This document shows, in pieces, positions 7,630 through 22,506 of a DNA stretch of 64,000 nt. This stretch comes from Phyllosticta citribraziliensis (Eukaryota). Each line of letters opens with the position of its first letter. Position 1 is the first letter of the stretch. Under the pieces are notes generated by a model that was not told the origin of the DNA, ran no database searches, and saw only the letters and a list, made by a program, of their open reading frames with translations. The stretch covers positions 434,001-498,000 of the forward strand of contig NW_027117343.1 of NCBI RefSeq assembly GCF_038025025.1, given 5' to 3'. A program made the position numbers and the translations under genes.

Positions 7630-8989
7630 TCAAGCAGGGTTCCAGGCCGCAGAAACATGAACGAAATCCGACCATGGCCACTCAGTAAACTCAACCGGTC
7701 CAAACCTCTTGTCTGCAGTTTTGAAAAGCTGCTTCCATTCCTCTTTCATTCGCTCCTTCCCGTTGTGGGTTGCCAGCATCGTCAGATCTGAGAACCTGAG
7801 CACCACATTAGCCACTCATCCTGTACGCTCTAAACTGATTGGAAGAGCTCACCTCTTGAAGCGTTGCGCGTTCTCCGGTTTCGCTTGCTCGGGAATCACC
7901 CATTCGTTGATCACGACCCTGGCCCCTTCCTTCATCGCTGGAATCAAGCTGCGCAAAATTCGGATGCAGTACTCGTCTCCCCAGTCATGGAAAATCTTGG
8001 AGAAGAAGTAAACGTCGGCACCCTTGACCTGTTGCTCCGTAAAAAAGTCCTGGGCCTGGAACGAGACGCGCTCCTTCAACTCCGGTGGCAACTCCTTCGC
8101 CGCGATCTCAACAGTTCCGGGCAGATCCTCGACAATGAGTTTCAAGTTCTTGGTTACTCGAGCGATGGCCAGGGCAATGTGTCCAAATCCTCCCCCGACA
8201 TCCACCATGACAGCCCCAGGACGGTCGATTTCTTGCCAGAGGGACGACGCTGAGTGCACCGTTGTGTTGTGGATCCCGCGGAAAGCCTTGCCAGCACGCG
8301 TTGCAAGCTCGGGATGCTTCTCAAAGTAATTGAACAGCGGCTCGTCCGTCTGATATGCCAGGTTGAACCCAGATTCGTTTGGCTCTTGGGAACCGGGCCA
8401 TTTTTCGACCGCATCGAGAGCCCGCATGTGGAAATTGATGAGATCCTCGGAGACAAATCCCACAAACGAAAGGAAACTCGTGTCGAGCAGACAGAGACTC
8501 GTAGCGTTGTGATTGAGCGAGCCGGGCGTCTTTTCCTCGAAGATGCCCGTGGTCACAGCATTGCGCAAAATACGTTTCAAAACTGCTTCCTGCATCCCAG
8601 TTTGCGCAGCGAGCTGAGCAAACGTCGTACCCGTCTTCTGGTCAACCTTTGTAGGAATGTCATAACGGTAAATGGCCTGAAGGCTGAGAATATCGGTGGC
8701 CTATGCAACACACATCAGCATCCACCACTCTTCCATTTTCGGCCGATTTGCCGCTCACCGTGCACATTTTTTCCCGGATAAAATCCCTTGGACTGAGGGA
8801 TTGTCTCAACAGCTGGCCTGCTGTATTGATGAGCGTCTCCCGGCTGTTCTTGAATTCCACAGAAAAGTTGTCGGGATTTGGAGCGCCAGCCGTGGTCGCT
8901 AAACTGGAAATCTCTCGTCCGGCTGCCTCATGCTCATCGATCTTCTTCGCTTCGACGAGAATCTGTTCGGCTAAGGCGGTGAACGACAT
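7630..8989 (-). CDS. SAM-dependent O-methyltransferase (fungal class II, OmtA-like; 3 exons)
   Basis: SAM motif VDVGGGFGH, plus DLP, QDFF, IFHDWGDE and C-terminal NGKER..EW..L. ATG at 8989; introns 8701-8758 and 7796-7852 give a continuous frame. Confidence 0.92.
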
Positions 8990-10029
8990 GTTGGACTGCC
9001 AACAGAGAGTTGCGATGGGGGTCAAGTCAGTGGGAGTGTCAAGCTCGACTGGTCGAAATCTATTTTTCCAGGAGGGAAGCTCGAATAAATACGCCAGGTT
9101 CCAAGCCTCAAGTTACTGGGCAGAGCGATATGAACAACTCAACTTCCTCCACGCGGCATTAGTAACGCACATCTCCGCAGTACGGCAGAAGCGCTCAGGC
9201 TTCAAGCACTTCCAGATGGGGGGCGGAACGGCTTCCGTCGCCAAACACATGGCTTCAAAGTGTCTTTCCGCCCGCCTCGCCCGCAGTCGCGGGTAGGTCG
9301 GCAAAGACGGGATCGTGGCATTGGCGAGACGGAACCGTTTATTAACGTAGGGCTGTCCCTGCAAGTGGGATCGGAACATGGTGTTGATGCTTGGCAGGGT
9401 CAGTTGCCTAGGAACCGGAAAGGCCGCGGAGAGCACATCAAGGCGCCGTGTCTAAAGCCGCAGCAGCCGGCTGCTTCCACTTCTACCTCACAAAGCACTG
9501 TGTTTCAACCAACGCTGCAGCTACATAGCCAGCACTCCCAAACGACTTCGAAACAGCCTCACAGATTCCGTTTTGCGGAACTCCTTGCACCGCGCAACGA
9601 TGCGCATGAAGTACATCTTCCGTTGGCTCGATGATCCGCTAATACGGTGCTGTCTATTACCAGGTCCCGCTTGTGGAAGCATAAAGATGCACTATACGGC
9701 TCGCAGCGTTTTGACCCTTTCTGTCGACGAGAATCCACGATATGCGGGCCAATCGTCACATCCGAATCCGAAAACGAGCTCGCGCCTTTGCAACCGCTTT
9801 CCCAAGCATCTCCATGAGGAAATTATTCGCGGCAGTAGACAAGCTATCGGCCGGAACACATCGACAGTCAGCAGTCATTCAGCATGGTTGAAGAGCAATA
9901 GTATTGCGCAGACTTGATTGTTTGTGGAGTCCTTGGCCACGCGTTGCAAAAGAAGAAAAAAGACAAGAATTCAAAACACCGGAGTATCAAGACATCAAGA
10001 ACACCACCGCAACGTGCTGTCAACTTTCT

Positions 10030-11255
10030 CTACGCATTTGGCAACAGTTCCTTCAAAAAGCGCCTCCATTCGTCAATTTCTGCGTCTCTCATTTCCAACT
10101 TCCGTTCCGCGTCCAGGAGCGCCCAACGCTCCTCCGCACACCCTCGAAAGCACCAATGGAGACGGCTGGATACCATCTTGTCACCATGGACGAGAAACGC
10201 GTACGACGCAGAGTTCAGAAAATTTTCCAGGCGCCCTATCTCCATGCAATTCCCATTCCACGAAAAATGCGGGGTTTGGTATGGGTGGAAGTACCCGATG
10301 TTCCGGACGACATGCTCGGCGTTGACTTTCGGAATGTAGAGCACTTCCCTCTGGATGGCAGATGCGGTGGTGTTCAGGGTGTCGAGGCGCTCGATGATGG
10401 CGTCGTCCATGGACGTCATGTCGCGTCTTCGTATCGAATCAAAGTCGGAATTGTAAAGCTTCCAGGATCCAACGCGCCCGGTCATAAGGGTTTCGTTGCC
10501 CTCGGATGTCTTGTATCGCTCCCAAGCCAATCCTACTTCTGCATTTGGGGGCTTCCAGGATGCAACGCTCTCGGCGGCGGCGGTGCTGCTGCCCTCGGAT
10601 GCTTTGTCCCGCTCCGAATCTGATCCTACTTCTGCGTCAGAGAGCTTTCAGCATTCAAGGCGGGGGCGGCGGCGTTACCATTCCCCCCTTCAGATGAATT
10701 GTTGCTACCACCTACATCTAGTTTCCAGGATGCAACGTCCTCGACGCTGGTCGGACTGCCAACCTCGGATGTCGTGTCGCTTGCCTTCAGCAACCCCATC
10801 ATAGCAAAGCCCTTCCGGTGCTCGATGAGATGCTTCTCCCGGGCTATGGCGTGACACGCGTCCAACGGCAGGCTCTGACCACCCCAATGATCCCAAGACC
10901 ACCGCTTGAAAGTGCCCTTGACGAACTGTCGGCCCTTCCGAAGCAGCAACTCACCGTCCTCAAGGCAAGCATCAGATTGACGAAACGGGGTGTTGGCAAG
11001 CTTGAATCGAAGGAACAAGCCTTCGGGGTCGTAGTGCTCGACGAAAAGACGCAGCGCCACGAGCTCCGCCATTTCGACTGCCAATTGCCTGGGCCGAGCG
11101 GCTTTGAAGACCTCGTACATTGAGAAAAGACGGTAAGCTTCGGCGAGCAAGAATTCCAGCTCGGTGGCATTGTAGACACCGTACCCGGCTTCGTCGCGCT
11201 CAGAATTGCAGTGCGTGTAAATGAAAGAGAGCGCTGCTTGCGCTTCGCTTGCCAT
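10030..11255 (-). CDS. Unknown protein, paralog A of the tandem family (about 392 aa if a 47-nt intron is spliced; otherwise a frameshifted pseudogene)
   Basis: ORF 10626..11255 carries the shared motif GYGVYNATELEFLLAEAYRL...FVEHYD. A candidate intron at 10632-10678 (GTAACG...CTGACGCAG) joins it in frame to ORF 10030..10530. TATAA lies upstream near 11346-11350. Confidence 0.6.
10458..10775. repeat. Degenerate ~93-bp (31-codon) internal tandem repeat
   Basis: The unit gcttccaggat(g/c)caacg...ccctcggatg...tcctacttctgc recurs at 10458, 10551 and 10644 (period 93) and again at 10721. Confidence 0.8.
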
Positions 11256-11615
11256 GACTGACGGAGGATCAGCAGTGTGGACGCAACCCAGTTGGTCAAA
11301 GCACTCTCGTTGAACTATGGCGACCCTGCTGAGGGAGCGTCCTACTTATACTAGCAGCGCGGGGCTTGTGGAAACATCACGAAAGCGCAAAACAAAACAA
11401 GTGTCCGAAACTCCGCCAGAAGCATCCAAACAAATCCAGACTCCGACAAACAGATGACTAGGAAGAGTTCAAGTAGGCCCCTTTGCGAACCAAACCATAC
11501 TACTGATTCCCTACGTGACTTGGCCAGTTTCCAGATACAGAAACAAATAGAGAGCGCTCTGCCGAAGAACTCCTGCCAAGAGAAAGAAAATCTGCGTGGG
11601 GAACATGGGTTGCCA

Positions 11616-12929
11616 TTACAAGCAATTTGGTAACCCACCGCCGAGACTCAGCCTCAAATCAGACACGACCTGGGACAACTTGATATTCGGGACCCCCCTT
11701 CCAAGCACCCAAGCCAGGATGTTGTGCATCCTTTCATAGTTCGCACAAATTGTGGATAAGTATTCCAACGACTTATCTTCAGGAGCTAAGAACCAGTACC
11801 CCCGGCAGCGTATCAGGAGCTCAGACAGTAGGCGGGTCGCTTCCAAGTGGGAATCTGCCAGGGATTCCCAATCACAGCGCGAGACATCCGCGTTGTGGGC
11901 GGCGCCATAAGTAGCTCGGCGGAAAACGTTGATCATCCCTTCGGTTTTCAACATCAATGGGTAAAGGTCGCTTGGTGAAAGACGCTCAGCACGCTCGTCT
12001 TCAACCCATACTTCGAGTTTTTTGAGTAAGCGGCTTGTCTTCTTGATGTACTCTTCCATGGTACACCAATCCTTGACCGTGGAATGGAGCGCCTCAGTCC
12101 GGTCTTCGACTTTGTCCTGCAGTTCGTCAGCTCTACTGTCCACTAAGGTTTCATTGTCAAGACAACTTACCAAAGGTTGATTTGGGGCTGTGGGAAGCGC
12201 AAAGGTTTCATCATCGTCAGTCGATCCATCAGCAGACTGGCTGTCCGAGTCTGTCTGATCGGCTGTGGTGGCATCGCTTTGCCAACTGTATGGCCGTTTG
12301 CCATTTGCATCAACGTGATCCTCGTCCTCATCACTGATATCTGGGGCAGGGCGCTTGTGGTGAAGCTCGACTGCTCCTTGGCCGTCGTCGTGAGGAGCAC
12401 GCCAACAGCGTGAGCGGCCACAAACTTCTTGTTCTGTTTTCCTTATCACGAGCTCGAACGTGTCTGTAATATTCGGACCCCAGCCCGGCTGACGCTTGTG
12501 ATTGTAGAGGTAGTTGAAAAAAGCCTTGGCCAATGGGCGCGAACAGAATTCGTGGACTTCGTCGTTCAGTTTGCGAGCATTCGCCTGGGGGCATGAGTCG
12601 AGGTCTGCCCAGCGTTCGCGGAGCCGCCGGGCAAAAAAGACCCGATCGCGATCGTAAAAGTTGCGGAAGTACATGATCTTCCGTACTTCCTTCTCGTTCG
12701 TGAATTGTCTGTTCTTCCCCATGTCACACAGCCGATTAAGTCGGTGTGCCTCAGTTAGCAGAATGCTGAGGGTGTCATCGTCATAGTTGGGCAACCCGTC
12801 GGCGTTGAACTCTGGGAACGCGTCGGCGTTGAACTCTGGGAACGCGTCCGCGTCGAAAGTCGGGGTCTCCAGCTGGAGCTTGAGGGCATGAAGAGGGCTG
12901 CGGAAAAGAATGGACAATTGAGGCGCCAT
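11616..12929 (-). CDS. Unknown protein, paralog B of the tandem family (about 437 aa, intronless)
   Basis: Long open frame with ATG at 12929 and TATAAA at about 13043-13048. Shared motif DGLPNYDDDTLSILLTEAHRL...FRNFYDRD...RERWADLDSC, then an acidic linker and a helical C-terminal region. Confidence 0.8.
   Translation of the reverse strand: MAPQLSILFRSPLHALKLQLETPTFDADAFPEFNADAFPEFNADGLPNYDDDTLSILLTEAHRLNRLCDMGKNRQFTNEKEVRKIMYFRNFYDRDRVFFARRLRERWADLDSCPQANARKLNDEVHEFCSRPLAKAFFNYLYNHKRQPGWGPNITDTFELVIRKTEQEVCGRSRCWRAPHDDGQGAVELHHKRPAPDISDEDEDHVDANGKRPYSWQSDATTADQTDSDSQSADGSTDDDETFALPTAPNQPLVSCLDNETLVDSRADELQDKVEDRTEALHSTVKDWCTMEEYIKKTSRLLKKLEVWVEDERAERLSPSDLYPLMLKTEGMINVFRRATYGAAHNADVSRCDWESLADSHLEATRLLSELLIRCRGYWFLAPEDKSLEYLSTICANYERMHNILAWVLGRGVPNIKLSQVVSDLRLSLGGGLPNCL
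12797..12857. repeat. Perfect 24-bp coding tandem duplication (AFPEFNAD x2 plus a partial copy)
   Basis: cgtcggcgttgaactctgggaacg at 12797-12820 and 12821-12844, with a partial third copy to 12857. Confidence 0.95.
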
Positions 12930-13962
12930 GCTTGCTGTTTGATCAGTGAAGATGAAACATGGGCTCGATTGACTGTGAGATAGGTATAAGAGTGGAGACA
13001 CGGACAGGTCGAGAAGCGCGGGGAGATGGGGGAGAGCTGCTTTTTATATTCATGCCAAGCTGCTGTCCGGGGAGACGCGCCGACGCGTTTTGTCAACTGA
13101 GGAAATTCCCACCATTGCTACAAAGTTTAATTCACTGAAAGCGGATGCGGGCGGCTTCTCTCTCCACGATGATTGGACTAAGCCCCAGTGCTCGAACAGT
13201 CATCCGAAGCTTAAGCCCAGTCCAGCGTTTAGTCGGGTGTGTGAGGGGACTGGGAGTAGATCGCCCTGGACACGCAGTTAGCGGTGGGCTTGGTGTGGCG
13301 CGCAGTCTTACCAGCAAGAAAGATGATTATGAGTTCACTGATAAGCTCGTCCATGTAATTGTGGGTGTGGATTGGAGCGCGTTGGGGAGAGGTGATTTCA
13401 TTGGCATTAACAGCGGCGACCGCAGTAACGACAGGCGACTTTTCAATCACAGTTTGAGTTGCTTCTAGACCCATCCACTTTTATCCCCCAAGACCAGATA
13501 TCTATGCTTTGACTGTCCAACCCGCAATCCTCCGGATCCTCCGCAGCGTGTTCTATTCGCTTGGACATCGAACATCGAACCCCATCAAACGGTCAGTTGA
13601 CATAGGACATTCTGAAACGCAATGGAGTGCGACACGAGTCTCTGATCATATTGATTATACAGTGTAATAAGAAGTCGCTATTTGCAATGCGCGGTAGGAT
13701 ACTTGCATTTCCGGAAGATTCTATGAAGATAGGGGTCCCCACGACGCGCGCGCCCAAACACGCGTTAAACGCGTGGATAAACACTACACACGCACGAAGT
13801 GCTGCGGTCTCCATAGATTGTACTGCATTGCATTGAGCAATGCCGCAGTTTTCGCGACCACTTGATTTACAGACCACCTTGAACAGATAGGAGCGTTTTA
13901 CAAAGCCCTTTAAGTCCTGACCTACCGACTGCAGACCTACCCATTCCCCGAGCCTCCACTCC

Positions 13963-14577
13963 TCAAACAGGCGCAAACATCCGCAACTTTTGCTGCGTCT
14001 TATCCAATGCATGCTGCAAATTATTCAAGTCCTCAACTAACGCATCATACTCTCGTCGGGGGATCTTGACAACCTCCTCCTCATCACCACTGCTCCCCGT
14101 CACTTCAGGACGAGCTCCCCTATCATTATTGACCTGCCAGCTACGCCCGCACCTCCTTCGCTGCGTATCCGAATACTCCGACACCAAAAAGTACGACTCA
14201 TCCGCACAAATAGCGCGATAAAAGTCCCTCGTGCCCTCACGAAACGCAGCAATCTGCACGCTCAACTCAGCACCGGCGGGGCGGCACGAGTGCAAGTCGT
14301 GCCAGCGATCGCGCACCCTCTTGTTGTAGAAGGACAGGTCGGCGTCGTAGAAGCTGATGAAGAAGCGGATGTGCGTCCGGTCGCTCACGTCGCCCGCGTA
14401 CCCCTTGTTCTGCGGCATTTCTTTGAGGATCTGGAGGCGGTATGCTTCGGTGAGCAGGTCGGCGAGGCAGTCGTCGGTGTATTTGGGGATGCCGTCGGCG
14501 TCTAGGGGCGGGGGAGTGATGTAGCGCCCGTAGAGAACGGGGTCGAGGTCGAGAATGGAGACATGTTTAGTGGCCAT
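13963..14577 (-). CDS. Unknown protein, paralog C of the tandem family (about 204 aa, C-terminal coiled-coil-like segment)
   Basis: ATG at 14577. Shared motif DGIPKYTDDCLADLLTEAYRL...FISFYDAD...RDRWHDLHSC; heptad-like tail YDALVEDLNNLQHALDKTQQKL. Confidence 0.78.
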   Translation of the reverse strand: MATKHVSILDLDPVLYGRYITPPPLDADGIPKYTDDCLADLLTEAYRLQILKEMPQNKGYAGDVSDRTHIRFFISFYDADLSFYNKRVRDRWHDLHSCRPAGAELSVQIAAFREGTRDFYRAICADESYFLVSEYSDTQRRRCGRSWQVNNDRGARPEVTGSSGDEEEVVKIPRREYDALVEDLNNLQHALDKTQQKLRMFAPV

Positions 14578-17500
14578 CTCCCCGAAGGATGGAGGAAGAG
14601 TCGTCGAAGCTGTCAAGTGAACAAGCGAGGTGGGGTTGATTTAGTCCATGGCTTCAAGCTACTTGATTCGTTGCGCCAAGCTGCGTCATTGACCAAACAG
14701 ACGTTTGCGGAGAAATCCGACCTTATCGCACTTCGCAGGCGATGATAAAGCCGCAACATGACCGCATATATGCACCTCTAGCTTTAGGATCACAGTTGTA
14801 GAGTGTACATCGACACTCAAAGCTGCAGCGTGTCCGTCAAACCGCTTCTCGCAACACTCGACGTTGCGGAAAATTACCCAATCCGGTTAGACCCGCGCGC
14901 AGCGCGATGTTGACAGCACAAACAACTTTGCCTGCCGCGCTGTACCAAACGAAAGGATCTATCGTCTGCCCATGTCACATATTAGTCTAGAACCTGGCAA
15001 TCCAGACGTCCAGGCCAGTTTGCCTATCACAGCCACAGACTCCCCCACCTGCAATAAAGCAGCGGCGAAGAAAGTGGAGCATGACAGACCCGCCACGCTG
15101 GCTGATGAAAACCGGGCCAGCAAGACGAAGACGAAGCGAAGGGAGGGCGTTCTTCGAGGGACCCGTTGCTTCGGTTTCGGATTTACACACGCAAACAGGC
15201 GTTCGGAGAGCGGCTGCGCAGACGGACGGATTGGCCCAGTCGACGGGAGGTGTGGGTGGGCACCGCTGCGGCACGGAGCGGCGCGGCGCGGTACGGTGCG
15301 AGGCGAAAACGAGGCGAAGGATTGGGCATGGCGGGTAGCGTATTTTCCAACATCCAAGCCTTGAAACCAGAAGACGAGTGCTGCGAGAATAGAAGGAAAA
15401 GAACGGAGGGCTGCAGGACAGGGCGGCAGAGATGTCTCGCTCCAGCCGATGCAAGCAAGTGGTAGGGATGACGTTGAGCTAATGCAGGAACCGGAACGGC
15501 ATCAAAAGATCGACCGGGCGTGGGAGGGCAGCGAACGTCACTCATAGCTCAGCTCCCGGCCCGGTCCTCTCTCTCTTTCTCTCCCCCATCTGCCTTGCCC
15601 TTCCAACTTCGTTCTGCCACGAGGCATGGCGCCTCGACCAGCCGTCCCGCGGAGACGTCAAACACACGTCCGCCACGCTGCTAGCCCTCAGACTATCGAA
15701 AGAGAAGAGCCGGCAATAGCAGCCACACGCGCGGAAAGCAGAGCTCGTCCGCCAAACATCGTTGCAGAATCGATACCAAGTGCGCGGTTTTTGGATGCAT
15801 GCTTCTCCTTGCCCGTCAGTCACATTGTCCATCCGTCTGTCGCAATTACAACAGCCTCGATCCGAGCCTCGCTTACCACTGCGCCTCGTGGGCAGCAGGG
15901 CAACGTTGATGTGCAACGCGGCGTAGAGAGTGGGTAGGGTTTGATTGGCTGCCCTTGTATAGATTCGTTTGTTGCCCGACTAACCATGGCCGCGGCCGAG
16001 GCTGTCGGTGGTGTGTGCGCAGGAGGTGCACGAGCCCCCACAGAGGTAGGGGATGGTGGGGAGGGGTGGTGTACAGCACTTGGGAATATTCGCGAGCAAG
16101 CCCAAACCGGGCGGTTGGAAGGAACGGGCAGGTGTTCAAAAGGGTCGTCTAAAGTTGCCGCGTCCGTGTTCTATGGAGCTTTGATTGAATGAGTGATTGA
16201 CAGGCGTCGATCAAGGCCACAGCAGCGTATGTCCCATGTCCAAAATGTAGTGGAGAGCGTGCACGGCAGTCGTAAACAACAGCAATAAGAGAAAGCAAGA
16301 TGCCAATCGCCTGGGACCAGGGCGCATGGGGAGGGGGAGCCGAGATGCTCATCGTCAAACCGCGTCTATTCCTGCTCCAAGATTTGCAGATGATAAGCTC
16401 GGACCAGCTCTTCCATGGGCACGGTTATTAATGCTGGAGAGATGCGTGGTCAGGCCAGACCAGCTTGCTGGGCGAGTGCGTGGGTTTTTTTAGCTTCCAC
16501 ATCCATGGCCTTGGTTGCACCACGCGCTCGCGCGCGCGTCGCTCCTCTCTCCCGGGATGTTGGGACTCGGTTGGAGAACATGCTGGGGTAGCACAGCGTG
16601 CTGGGTTGCATGATTGAAAGACATTGTCGCCTCAACGCGAAATTCTAGACACAACTCCCGTCCTCAAGTTCCGGTCAAGGCATGCCGTGTAGTAATCCCT
16701 GCAATTGGCCTTGGGTTGGAGGGCAAGACTTGGAGAGCACAGTAGCCGCGCAATGAGCCAAGAGTAGCCTGGGGAAGCCTGCGGCTGAAGATGCTGTTTT
16801 TGGTGAAGCGTCTGGATCATCACACCATGGCAACGCTTGAGAGGTGGTCTGATTGTAATATGGATTTTGATCTTGTGGAACCCAAGGCGTGCAGTTTTTC
16901 TTCTTGCTCGACTACAGCGCTGCCCCATCAAAAATCCAGCAGAATCCGGGTGCCGGTACCTGCCGTACAAATCAAACGTGGTCCAAAAGAAGTGAAGCAT
17001 CAAGGCAGCCGGAGCAATACCCTTCCGAGATTCAGCCGGTAGCGACGCCAGTGGTAAAACGACAAGGAGCATTCAAGAGGACGCCCAAGACGAGTAATTA
17101 CAATCTGACTCGCTCTCGTATTGGCTCGAGTAGCTGCTCCGAGACAGGTAATCTGGACCAGGATGTGGGCTGCGACGGCGGGGATCCTCCCACAAAGATT
17201 CCATGAGGCTCACTGTCAGCAGCGCTTGGACAAATACCCAGCCTTTAGATCTGCGGCCAAAAACCTAAGCGTGATGAGAGTTCAAGAGACACAAGCTTAA
17301 TAGAAATTACCATTTGCCTCAAAGGCAAAACCCACCCCAAAAGATACAGTACAAGATTTTGGCGGTGAAAATCGGAAACAGCCCTTTCGTGGTTCCTGCA
17401 ATAGCCGTGAGCTGCTCATTCTATGTCGTGTCTATCCAAAGTATTTGTCGGGGGAAAGGTAACCCCGGAACCAAGTTGCTGCGCCCAAGTTTTGGCCGGC

Positions 17501-17585: not shown

Positions 17586-18485
17586 TTACAAAATTGTGCA
17601 TCTGTGATCGCGGCGATTTCGCCTTTTGCCGGGACCTGTGGATCCGCGCCGTGCTTCTAGTTGCTTGCGGCTGGCAGCCATGCTGGCATCGTGTGCTCGA
17701 CTGCGTTCCATGTCTTTGCGTATTATTTGCCGGCAAAGATCAATAAATACTTCGTCGACATTGGCTCGCCGTCTTGCCGAGGTCTCGTAGTACGGACAGT
17801 TTCCCCACGCTTGGCTGACGGCAAACGCGCGCGACCGCGTCACGGCGCGGTCCTCTTCGAGATCCGACTTGTTGCCGACGAGTACTATGGGAACGCGTTC
17901 GTCGTCTTTTATTCGAATGATTTGGTCGCGTAGTTCGGCGAGTTCGTGAAGGGACGTCATGGAGGTGATGCTAAAGACCAATAGAAACCCTTGGCCAGTC
18001 TTCATGTACAATTCTCTTTTGGTGAATCAGCGGCATTGCGCGCAGCGATCGGCGGCGTCGACATGATAGTTACCTCATGGCAGCTACCCCAGATTAGCGA
18101 ATCATGACGCAAGGGTGAGAGGGAAAATCTTACTGAATTGCTCGGTCCCTGCAGTATCGAGGATTTCAAGAACCACGGACCGACCCTGTGCGCGACAGCG
18201 TCAGATTTGCCCACGAAGACAAGCCAAGATACGTACATCGACATCAATCGCCTTGCGATACGAGTCTTCTATGGTTGGGTCGTAGGATTCTATCCAGACA
18301 TTCTGAACGAATTGTGCTGACCGAGAGTGAGCAAGTCGATTCGCCAGAAGCCGCAAGCGAGCGTACCTGTCAGACAGCTCTTTCCAACGCCACCTTGAAG
18401 CCAACGTCAGCACAGGCAAATGGCCATCGACGCACGGTTCCGTACCAGATCCCAAGACAACAATGTGGTATTCTCGTTGTGACAT
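17586..18485 (-). CDS. RSR1: Ras-related GTPase Rsr1/Bud1 (Rap1 homologue; 6 exons)
   Basis: Spliced GSGGVGKS, effector YDPTIEDSY, DTAGTEQFTAMRELY, NKSD, ETSA and CAAX box CTIL. Includes a 10-nt microexon at 18074-18083. Confidence 0.96.
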
Positions 18486-19621
18486 GCCTCTGCGCGGGGG
18501 GTTCGAGGAGAGAGGGACGGAGGAGACGGTCTCGGGCGTATTGCAATCTTAGGCGCTTCAATGGCTCGAGATAGGCGGCGCGCCGAGTGATGGCGCGAGA
18601 GAACACGCCACGCGACGGAAGCCGAGGCGCGTTTTCGGCAGACGGGAACCTAAAGGTGTTTCGACACAGCCTCGCGCCGGCGGGAGGAGGAGCAGGTTAA
18701 GGACGAGGCGCGGTGACGGGCACAAGGGTGGCGCGGGTGGGAGCTGTCTGGATGCGGAGTAGGGGACGACGCAAGCAGAACCAGGGATCACTAGAAGCTG
18801 TTAGCCGTGGCGGACGGTGGGCGAGGGTGTTGCAGGGGACAAACCAAAGGATGGCGGAGTGACGGACGGGAGGGTGGATGGGAATGGGGATGGAGGTGGA
18901 AGTGGAGGTGGATGATGTGCAAAGGGACGGGAGGCATGGTTAAAAGGCAAGTCAAGCAGACCAAGTTTGGGCGCTGGCGGACCAGTCGAGATAATTTCGC
19001 GGGACCTGGACCTGAGCTTGACAGCTGCCGGTACAGGTAGGGGCGTGATAGGCGACGGGCAATGTAACACGGACTGGACCACGACAGGAGGAATTGTCCT
19101 GAGAGAGAGCCGTGAAGGTCGTCGATCCGCCGCGATCCACCCGCCGCGTCCAAGGCGACGTCCAAGTGTCAGTGGAGTGCAAGTGTCCAACGCCCCGGAT
19201 CAGCCCTGGCACCTGGCCCAGTGCTGCGTCCCACTACCACTACCGTACACTGCCTACAGCGACGACGGGACCTTATGCAACAGCGCAGGACAACGCCATG
19301 GTCGGTCCCTGTTGCCAGCAAACCGCCATTTGGGCCTCGTGTGCCGGCCAACGGCTCGTCTCTCGAGTCTCCAACAGGTCCAATGCATAGACGTCGACTT
19401 CCTGCAATCACTCGACGCTACGGCCGCATCGAGTCGTGCGTGCCAGTGTTGTTTCGCATATCTCATCAACAGGTCGGTGGTATTCGCCTGGATGCCTTGG
19501 TGCCTTGGTGCCTTGATGCCTGTGTCTTGGCGTCTGCGATTCTGCCAGTCCTCACCGCCCTGAGCTCCGCGTCGCCTCCATGGCCGCCCGTCTGCCATCA
19601 CACGAACTCCACCAGTGAACC

Positions 19622-22506
19622 ATGCTGCTCCCCTCGCTGCTGGCATTGACGGCCACGCTGGTCCCCTCTGCCCTCGCCGTCTTCGCCGATGATGCATACC
19701 ACGTCGACTACCACTACGCCCTGCTAGGCGCCCCGCAGCAGCACGCCACCTTCTTCCACCAGCCGCGCGCCGATTCCAAAGCTTCGCTGCTCTACACCAT
19801 CTCGGACAAGCTCATCCTCGGCGCCGTCAATCCTCGCGATGGAGCTCTCGTATGGCGCCAAAATCTTTCCACGAGTGCCACTGGTCCTGCGGGCTTTCTG
19901 AGGGCCGGAGAGGAGCAGGACACGGTAGTCAGCGCACTGGGCGGTCGCGTCGCTGCCTGGGATGCCGCAGACGGCCGTTTGGCCTGGAGCGTCGACTTCA
20001 AAGATGCTCACGTCAAAGACCTCGAGGTCCTGGAGCTTCCCGATGCCGCCAATGCCGCCAAAGACTCCATCGTTCTATGTGGCGGCAGCAAATCAACCGT
20101 CAAGAGGTTGGACGGCCAAACGGGAGCTGTAAAGTGGGAGTTTGAGGACACGAGGTAAACAATCTGCATCTCCACGAGAGCGCCACTGACGGCCACGCAG
20201 CGGCGACACTCCGTATCAAGTCTCAACCTCGGCGACAGCCATCTACTCCGTTTCTCTGTCTTCCTCAATGCTAGGCGGCTTGAAGATTAAAGTCACATCA
20301 ATCGACCCCCTTACCGGCAAAAAGCTTGACCAGTACACTCTTGCTTCGGACAGTGACATTTCTTCCGTAGAAAACATCCTCTTTGTCGGCGCCAATACTG
20401 CCTCGCCGCTTCTGGCGTGGACGGACAAGGCGTTCAAGACGCTCAAGGTTAATGTCATTGGATCCAAGAGCACCGCCTCGTTTGCCATTGAAAACCCAAC
20501 TGCCGAAGAAATTGAGCAGGTGGTCTTGCATGCACCGCACCGCATCAATTCCTTCCCGCACTTCCTCGTCCACTACCAAACTGCCCAAAGCCACTGGGCC
20601 GAAGTTTACCATGCCGACGTCAAGACTGGTGCGATAACCAAGGCCTACAGCCTGCCCAAGCTTGGCGGAAGCGGAGCATTTTCCACAAGCACTGTCGACG
20701 CCAATGTCTACTTTACGAGAATCACATCTGACCAAGTCATTGTCGTTGCCTCAACATCCCATGGAATTCTCGGTCGCTGGCCTGCCAAGCGCGCCGAGCA
20801 AGCTCCTCTCAACCCACTACACGCCGTGTCCGAGGTCGCCGTGCGAGACAACACTGCCTCTGCTGTGCGATCAGCCGTCTTTCTTGCCGACGGAAACTGG
20901 GACATGCTTCGCAACGGAGATCCCGCATGGTCTCGTCCAGAGGCTCTCGCTGGAGCAATCGACGCCGTTTGGGTCGAATTACCACCTGAGGAGTCTCTTG
21001 CTCACGAGCTGGAAATTGAGACTCACCAGTCTGTGCTGGGAGCCTACATTCATCGACTCAAAAGACACATTAAGGATCTTGAGCACCTCCCCGGCTACCT
21101 CCAGAGTCTTCCCAATCGCCTGTTCAGCTCCGACGAAACTGTCGACGCCCTGAACAAGTTGCGCAGGGATAGCTTTGGCTTCAACAAGCCTGTCGTTGTC
21201 GTCACCGAAACTGGACGCTTTGTCGCCCTCAGCGCCGGGACCATCATCTGGAACCAAGATGCCTTGAAGCTGCCCACCGGCAAAAAGATTGAACAAGTCG
21301 ATGTCAAGTTCGTCAACGGCACGATTGCTGCCATCTTCCCTCAGATCGACCGTCAAGTCCTTCTCAATGCCACCACTGGAGAGCTGGTTGAAACCAACGA
21401 CAAGTCCATCTTTGAGGCTGTCCAGATAGGCCCGAAGGACGTTTCGTACAAGGTCGTCGGGAGCGAGCTCAAGGGGTATTTGGCTGGAAAAGAGGAAGCC
21501 TGGAAGTTCTCTCCAATTCGTGGGGAGCGCGTTGTTAGCGTCACTCCTCGACCTTTGCCTGATCCCGTGGCGTCGATTGGCAAGGTCCTTGGAGACCGGA
21601 GTGTGCTTTACAAGTACTTGAACCCCAACCTGGTATTTGTGACAGCGGTCAACGATGTGGCGGGCACCCTTTCCGTCTATCTCATCGATTCCGTCTCTGG
21701 GGCTGTCCTTTATGAAGCCTCCCACGACGACGTGGACACTGCGCAGCCCATCCCCGCGGTGCTTTCCGAGAATTGGGCAACTTACTCCTTCTCCCTTCGT
21801 ACAGATTCCAGTGCTGCTTCCAAGGGCCACCTCCTGGTTGTCGCTGAATTCTTCGAGTCTACCCTCCCCAATGACCGCGGTCCATTTGGATCTTCATCCA
21901 ACTACTCGAGTGTCCGGCCCTCTTCTGGCGCGCTCGGAGAGTCGGCCAAACCCAAGGTGCTCAGCCAGACGTATCATATCCCTGAGCCCATCTCCCACGT
22001 GGCCGTCACCCAGACGACCCAGGGCATCACGTCCAAGTGGCTGCTGGTAACGCTCCCCGAATCCAACTCGGTGGTGGGCGTCCCGCGCCAGTTCCTGGAC
22101 CCTCGACGCCCGGTTGGCCGTGATCCTACGGCAGACGAGCAGACCGAGGGCCTCATGCGCTACACTCCGGCGATTGAGTTTGACCCGCGTCAGTACTTGA
22201 ACCACAAGCGGGAAGTGCTGGGCGTCAAAAAGGTAGTCACCAGCCCGGCGTTTGTCGAGAGCACGAGCTTGGTGCTGGCCTTGGGCCTAGACGTGTTTGG
22301 CACCCGTGTGGCGCCTAGCTCTGCGTTTGATGTTCTGGGAAAGGAGTTCAACAAGGTGCAGCTGGTGCTGACGGTGGGGGCTTTGGCTGCGGCCGTTGCG
22401 TTTGTGGCGCCTTTGGTAAGTTGAGCCTATCTTTGCGTGCTGGTCGATGCTAACTTTTGCACAGGTTCGCAGGAAACAGATCAACGCGCAGTGGCAGGCT
22501 TTGTGA
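19622..22506 (+). CDS. EMC1: ER membrane protein complex subunit 1
   Basis: Signal peptide then AVFADDAYHVDYH, PQQ-like propeller repeats, VLGDRSVLYKYLNPN, ESTSLV and a C-terminal TM helix. Introns at 20155-20200 and about 22416-22464; the last exon encodes VRRKQINAQWQAL*. Confidence 0.95.

Follow-up and report, generated by a model that had tools for sequence, protein, structure and literature searches.

We analyzed a 64,000-nucleotide (nt) stretch of genomic DNA of Phyllosticta citribraziliensis (contig NW_027117343.1, positions 434,001 to 498,000; hereafter, the window), in which three minus-strand genes lie one after another in the order A (10030-11255), B (11616-12929) and C (13963-14577). 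The proteins encoded in the window are identical or near-identical to P. citribraziliensis entries. An earlier reading of the letters (the original prediction) had described the three genes as diverged paralogs sharing an N-terminal domain. Here we describe the anatomy of this family and a capsid-like domain at the C-terminus of A. The explanation that we prefer, to which we give about even credence, combines this anatomy with descent of the C-terminus of A from a retrotransposon gag gene.

Genes A, B and C and their N-terminal domain

Gene C (13963-14577, minus strand) is an intron-less open reading frame (ORF) of 204 amino acids, identical to a public protein. It comprises the N-terminal family domain (residues 23-150; 14128-14511, minus strand), delimited by BLASTP to B and hhalign to A-type proteins, and a short coiled-coil-like tail. 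Gene B (11616-12929, minus strand) spans 437 genomic codons, corresponding to 419 amino acids once an in-frame intron is removed, as in public models P0004 and P0014. The N-terminal family domain of B (residues 39-170; 12420-12815, minus strand), placed using BLASTP and AlphaFold, is predicted to form six helices preceded by a short beta turn and is followed by an acidic linker and a helical C-terminal region of approximately 170 residues that matched no known fold.

Transcript evidence came from two runs, X1 and X2, whose library type is not recorded; we took them as cDNA-like since each yields a contig with a canonical GT..AG joint. The intron of B (12116-12169, minus strand; 54 nt, GTAAGT..GCTGAC..CAG) is in frame and contains no stop. 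The joint 12115->12170 was found in one X2 contig, whose shorter side extends over 39 nt, and the X1 contig retained the intron. The corresponding 18 residues are likewise removed in P0004 and P0014.

Two open frames were found at A, one of 209 codons (10626-11255) and one of 205 codons (10030-10647). When a predicted 53-nt intron (10626-10678, minus strand; GTAACG..CTGAC..TAG), inferred from P0004, P0014 and the DNA, is used, two exons encode a protein of 390 amino acids; unspliced, the frame runs into a TAG at 10626-10628 and A has 209 amino acids. Exon 1 (10679-11255, minus strand) encodes a diverged N-terminal family domain (residues 18-102; 10950-11204, minus strand), supported by hhalign and shuffle tests, and the start of a Ser/Gly/acidic repeat linker. 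Exon 2 (10030-10625, minus strand; 197 amino acids and stop) encodes the remaining linker together with a long helix and the capsid-like lobe (residues 292-390; 10033-10329, minus strand). The linker contains degenerate 93-nt (31-residue) repeats with the unit ..TSEG..V.SWK.. (10460-10778; repeat families D1 and D2). Contigs of the two cDNA-like runs cover parts of A, and X2 record 9 spans 10032-10363.

The N-terminal similarity of A, B and C exceeded chance when compared with shuffled controls and was strong for B and C and weaker for A. B and C were 33% identical over 179 columns in BLASTP (E 3e-20; Smith-Waterman z 32.9, with none of 1000 shuffles as high), and A and C were matched by BLASTP at E 6e-4 (z 6.5, 0/1000 shuffles as high). 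The N-terminal alignment of A and B was missed by BLASTP; its Smith-Waterman z was 4.0, and 2 of 1000 shuffles scored as high. When the profile of three A-type sequences was aligned with that of four B/C-type sequences using hhalign, the probability was 86.7% with E 4.4e-6 over 81 columns. Note that the C-like N-terminal fragment of P0006 was taken out of the profile sets before this comparison.

The shared strings quoted in the original prediction were all present in the translations, at residue 21 of A, residue 42 of B and residue 26 of C, as were the F..FYD..F motif and the motif R.R(E/D)RW.DL.SC, the latter confined to B and C. Further, B and C begin alike as described, with M1, A2, I8, L9 and P13 invariant in their alignment. 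A second block, said to be shared by the C-termini of A and B, was not recovered: BLASTP gave no match, hhalign gave E 0.57 and 905 of 1000 shuffles scored as high. The first residue (Q) of this block in B falls inside the 54-nt intron. Homology of the C-terminus of A to the C-terminus of B, the tail of C or the N-terminal domains was rejected (hhalign E 0.38-0.57), as was a match of the C-terminus of A to the tail of C at E 0.042 over just 20 columns.

The common domain of approximately 85-130 residues is all-helical; its elements are a turn with DxDG-x-P-x-Y, a long helix with L..LLTEAYRL and a helix with FYD. The proposed architecture held: a constant N-terminal module is followed by acidic or Ser-rich linkers, predicted to be disordered, and by C-termini that differ between A, B and C. 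The proteins look intracellular, as had been suggested, and have no transmembrane segment (highest Kyte-Doolittle 19-residue mean, 1.03). The module had no Pfam or PDB sequence match, consistent with the earlier remark that no Pfam family was recognized, and a Pfam search of family members at E<=10 returned nothing apart from noise. Weak rows for PhiKZ_VTX (E 0.0077-0.03), DASH_Hsk3 (0.11) and CYP38_PsbQ-like (0.043) lay far under the cut-offs and were discarded as coiled-coil or helix noise.

Structures of B and of the A-type ortholog P0013 were predicted using AlphaFold2 without templates, each from a 5-row alignment, with a mean predicted local distance difference test (pLDDT) score of 46.6 and 42.9, respectively; confidence was thus low overall, and two parts could be used locally. 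The pLDDT of the B model was 60-80 for residues 41-140 and 54-58 for residues 141-170, and this part was all-helical after a short beta turn. Fold searches with the B model returned lists full of generic helical repeats on low-confidence residues and thereby barely probed the N-terminal domain. In the ESM Atlas, residues 20-150 of C gave no usable feature match and structural neighbors with a TM-score of at most 0.41. Judged from their sequences, A, B and C are one tandemly duplicated family with a common N-terminal domain.

A phmmer search of 1.84 billion cluster representatives with C returned six proteins at E<=0.001, namely C itself, three other Phyllosticta proteins and two that we judged spurious. 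Of the latter, P0008 matched only residues 172-201 in the coiled-coil tail of C, in 10 stretches, and P0009 is a repeat protein. Word-indexed searches of 5.8 billion proteins with B, the B/C alignment and the C-terminus of A returned Phyllosticta proteins only; the search with the C-terminus of A gave only P0004 and P0014 and overlooked the known ortholog P0013, so that its blanks mean little. All true matches in both kinds of search were therefore Phyllosticta proteins, as expected for the lineage-restricted family that had been proposed. Relatives were found in four species, P. citribraziliensis, P. citrichinensis, P. paracitricarpa and P. capitalensis; of these, P. citrichinensis and P. paracitricarpa have A-type orthologs. 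No further copies of A, B or C were detected in the window by tblastn.

The public entries for the locus and its orthologs are all named "hypothetical protein": P0014 (831 amino acids) and P0004 (724 amino acids) of P. citribraziliensis, P0005 of P. citrichinensis, P0006 and P0013 of P. paracitricarpa, and P0007 and P0010-12 of P. capitalensis. Our searches of open-access papers brought up nothing on this family. The N-terminal domain of A was 85% and 64% identical to those of congener orthologs, and its C-terminus was 48% identical to that of the P. paracitricarpa ortholog, whose frame has no stop. For B, identity to a congener ortholog was 63% in the N-terminal domain and 36% in the C-terminus, and C was 39% identical to the P. 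capitalensis member. These identities, 36-85% depending on the domain, show strong divergence between congeners and are only suggestive of a fast-evolving family.

Three features of individual members were observed in addition. An exact-register 24-nt tandem duplication in B (12790-12837, minus strand; 92% identity) doubles DAFPEFNA at the start of the N-terminal domain, and DAFPEFNA is present once in the P. capitalensis relatives. The acidic linker of B carries two basic KRP patches (HHKRPAP and NGKRPYS; residues 190-215, about 12240-12390, minus strand), and in the P. citrichinensis ortholog their places are taken by RKRK and GKRAR; these patches look like nuclear-localization signals. In P. 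paracitricarpa, P0006 and P0013 start with 58-69 residues that are 71% identical to the start of C and pass directly into A-type sequence. This would mean that B and most of C were lost or decayed in this species or that the gene model skips them.

The capsid-like C-terminus of A

Neither the capsid-like C-terminus of A nor the public fusion of B with A had been picked up in the original prediction. In the template-free model of P0013, the pLDDT reached 55-82 only for residues 320-423, which form a beta hairpin and six short helices. When this model was compared with 48,161 chains, every one of the 13 best rows was a capsid, as were 22 of the top 24, and of the 32 rows on the domain 28 were capsids; these capsid rows span six or more retroelement lineages. 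Further, ESM-Atlas features of the C-terminus of A of the window itself led, weakly (0.85-0.87), to clusters with DUF4939, Retrotrans_gag and Ty3_capsid. The C-terminus of A-type proteins is predicted to be a compact bundle of short helices, the fold of a capsid lobe. Prediction thus supports a single retroelement capsid (CA) lobe at the end of A-type proteins. A does not match gag families in sequence and resembles them in predicted fold only; we consider it gag-like and probably gag-derived.

Because the predicted structure ends in a single CA lobe, we read A as a chimeric host gene. The family would have arisen by tandem duplication, and A would have taken up part of the gag gene of a long terminal repeat (LTR) retrotransposon and would have lost the other lobe along with the nucleocapsid, pol and the LTRs. 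The neighboring genes, which encode an O-methyltransferase, a major facilitator superfamily transporter, a Ras-like GTPase and EMC1, are host-gene surroundings. No reverse transcriptase, RNase H, integrase, protease or gag Pfam domain was found in 64 of the 91 window ORFs of at least 170 amino acids (E<=1e-5), and no long, LTR-like direct repeats flank 8500-16500.

Several results weigh against this reading. No Pfam gag family matched exon 1 of A, exon 2 of A, P0013 or P0005 at E<=10, and PDB sequence searches using phmmer and hmmsearch gave noise only. The Foldseek E values for the C-terminal capsid domain of Ty1' (CA-CTD), 4.5 and 7.5, were non-significant; Foldseek searches of PDB with the B and P0013 models gave nothing at E<=0.001, and a search of BFVD gave nothing useful. 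The structure model is that of the ortholog P0013, not of the window protein, and was built from the 5-row alignment. One lobe was recognized and A ends with it, and the N-terminal domain was barely reached by the fold searches. The CCHC knuckle (C-x2-C-x4-H-x4-C) was absent from six proteins, namely P0014 (A and B), B, C and three orthologs. Finally, the X1 contig keeps the 53-nt predicted intron of A, X2 has no contig there, and the donor GTAACG is atypical; because of this retention and this donor, the capsid-like exon may not be joined to the N-terminal domain in P. citribraziliensis. A co-fold of two copies of the C-terminal 128 residues of A, in which the alignment was unused, scored 0.00 with an uncertain fold, and we concluded nothing from it.

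An alternative that we regard as unlikely is that the trio consists of young orphans without ancestry in a transposon, which arose de novo or diverged beyond recognition in Phyllosticta, and that the likeness to capsids reflects a common arrangement of small helical bundles. Such genes would be expected to resemble what we found: no Pfam or PDB sequence match, a mean pLDDT of 43-47 in both models and very low ortholog identity (36% in the C-terminus of B and 48% in the capsid-like part). However, a generic bundle would hardly be expected to attract capsids alone, and among 48,161 chains the 13 best rows were capsids of six or more lineages, as were 28 of the 32 domain rows; the protein-language-model features point independently to gag families.

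It is also fairly unlikely, in our judgment, that A is a decaying gene. In that case, a frameshift in the 93-nt repeat would have created the stop at 10626-10628, the 53-nt intron would be a device of annotation to rescue the frame, and translation of the N-terminal domain would no longer extend into the capsid-like exon. The stop of exon 1 and the predicted intron both lie within one copy of the repeat, and the adjacent copy reads through in another frame. Decay would also account for the atypical donor and for the 53 nt kept in the X1 contig, and P. citrichinensis model P0005 stops at the same codon, while the frame is continuous in P. paracitricarpa. In contrast, the 53 nt contain a branch-like CTGAC motif, with its A 11 nt from the TAG acceptor, the same motif as in the confirmed intron of B. 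Retention in the X1 contig proves little, since X1 also retains the intron of B that is spliced in X2. Further, the frame downstream of the stop is still open for 205 codons, a coding potential that is kept in the 48%-identical ortholog as well, and the indels detected in a related organism (DNA run X3) net +3.

The sequence of that related organism differed from the window in a dense patch of substitutions at 10207-10282 (minus strand), with four 1-nt insertions and one deletion. The patch codes for the hairpin of the capsid-like lobe, which is hypervariable there with the frame kept.

Transcription units and surroundings of the locus

The ORF of C was covered whole and unspliced by one discrete, deep contig in each run (X1, 13736-14600; X2, 13679-14545). 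From the extent of these contigs, the probable C transcript spans 13679-14600 (minus strand), with a 5' untranslated region (UTR) of approximately 23 nt and a 3' UTR of 230-280 nt; the transcript ends are a weak hint only, as an adaptor loose end sits at 13736 in the X1 contig. Where X1 and X2 contigs are lacking (13237-13678, and 14601 onward), we drew no evidence from the gap.

P0014, the public model from the same assembly as the window, fuses B and A to a protein of 831 amino acids via a 297-nt intron (11342-11638, minus strand; GTGGGT..TAG), which we located by comparing the P0014 sequence with the DNA. X2 record 10 (11403-11689) and the long X1 contig (record 1) run unspliced through the donor of this intron and through the in-frame stop of B, and the introns that are spliced in X1 and X2 contigs are 51 and 54 nt long. 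Further, A has its own ATG, with TATAAG (11345-11350) about 90 nt upstream. We read 11342-11638 as the stop and 3' UTR of B and the promoter region of A rather than as an intron. Because the contigs read through the donor of the fused model and the spliced introns are 51 and 54 nt long, we favor three separate genes, and we consider it very probable that C, B and A are three separate transcription units. The public fusion is probably an annotation artefact; as a practical correction, the B-A model in Phyllosticta genomes probably represents two genes.

The improbable alternative is that, as in the public annotations, a single gene comprises B and A and its product carries the N-terminal domain twice, in which case the locus would hold two genes. 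Three independent public models do join B to A (831 amino acids; 724 amino acids in another strain; 545 amino acids in P. citrichinensis), but the joins differ in all three, and that of the window's assembly needs a 297-nt intron that the contigs pass through and that contrasts with the short introns seen to be spliced; A also has the ATG and upstream TATAAG described above. One 9.7-kb X1 contig is unbroken across B and A; however, it merges several units, since it continues into the gene for the O-methyltransferase and into a spliced transcript of the plus strand.

The latter was recognized from a 51-nt GT..AG intron that an X1 contig skips (9346-9398, plus strand), on the strand opposite to the flanking genes. 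This intron lies within 9000-10030, between the start of the O-methyltransferase gene and the end of A, where we saw no convincing long ORF. The plus-strand product may be an unannotated non-coding or antisense transcript.

The trio is located between the O-methyltransferase gene (7852-8700; Pfam Methyltransf_2) and the Ras-like GTPase gene. The latter is Ras/Rap-like (exons near 17870-18400, minus strand), with the motifs GVGKS, DTAGTE and NKSDL on separate exons, and EMC1 is encoded at 19619-22421 (plus strand; Pfam EMC1_C, E 2e-72). Scans of the window with Rfam, at gathering thresholds, and for tRNAs gave no match.

Possible functions and comparison with known systems

The proteins of the trio may be non-enzymatic and work through protein-protein binding. 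The paralogs would associate via their shared N-terminal domain, and the short, abundant C could modulate A and B. The CA lobe of A would most likely bind capsid proteins, be they lobes like itself or the Gag that a resident retrotransposon encodes, and could then act as an assembly poison of the Ty1 p22, Drt2 or Fv1 type. Taken by itself, this restriction-factor mechanism is tentative, and we rate it as rather unlikely.

Quite improbable is the wider proposal that the whole trio is a capsid-derived defense module, in which the N-terminal domain would be an extremely diverged second capsid lobe or a capsid-binding domain. How such a module might operate is equally doubtful: the proteins would co-assemble via the N-terminal domain, the lobe of A would poison the particles of LTR retrotransposons, and C would tune or titrate the assembly. 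If true, this would make the trio a restriction system of several fast-evolving, Gag-mimicking genes, operating in a filamentous fungus alongside repeat-induced point mutation (RIP).

Very improbable is a conflict system of the kind named in the original prediction (allorecognition, meiotic drive with antidote, or anti-parasite defense), with the paralogs as toxin and antidote or as recognition partners: its attractions are tandem, lineage-restricted paralogs with modular ends that diverged strongly between congeners, a short, deeply covered member adjoining longer ones, and the hypervariable hairpin of A in the X3 organism, where the indels add up to a multiple of three, but no signature of allorecognition, drive or a toxin-antidote pair was found (no HET, HeLo, NLR, Goodbye, SesA, NACHT, Spok-like nuclease or kinase domain with Pfam at E<=10; neither a single nor wtf-like multiple transmembrane segments, by the hydropathy given above), and the sole recognizable domain indicates transposon capsid ancestry. 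Given this ancestry, any conflict would be with retrotransposons, as in the explanation that we prefer. The idea is thus unsupported save in this narrower sense, a host-retrotransposon conflict, which is possible.

Drt2 is a domesticated restriction factor derived from the CA-CTD of Ty1' Gag, and p22/p18 are encoded by Ty1 itself. In contrast to these, A has no detectable sequence similarity to any gag, its lobe sits after an unrelated N-terminal domain and linker of approximately 290 residues, and its two sister genes in the tandem family have no such lobe; restriction by A is putative. Drt2 of Saccharomyces cerevisiae is reported to restrict Ty1' and to associate with Ty1' particles (PMC10951436). 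Three further fungal gag co-options, Crtg12-14, are reported to be old and single copy (PMC8321522).

A resembles the domesticated gag genes (Drt2, Arc, PNMA and Crtg) in that it stands alone among host genes and has orthologs in related species. Known co-opted gag genes are described as recognizable by sequence, usually with both lobes, as old (at the level of the family or above) and as single copy in fungi, whereas A is genus-restricted, has one lobe, is cryptic in sequence and is fused to a novel domain. The public models of the locus are unnamed and carry no domain or function, and here we argue from the contigs that B and A are separate. The co-opted retrotransposon capsid genes documented in fungi are few, and all of those reported were found by sequence (PMC8321522, PMC10951436). 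A is visible only through predicted structure, which suggests that young, cryptic gag captures escape sequence screens and that capsid lobes can recombine with new domains inside tandem families.

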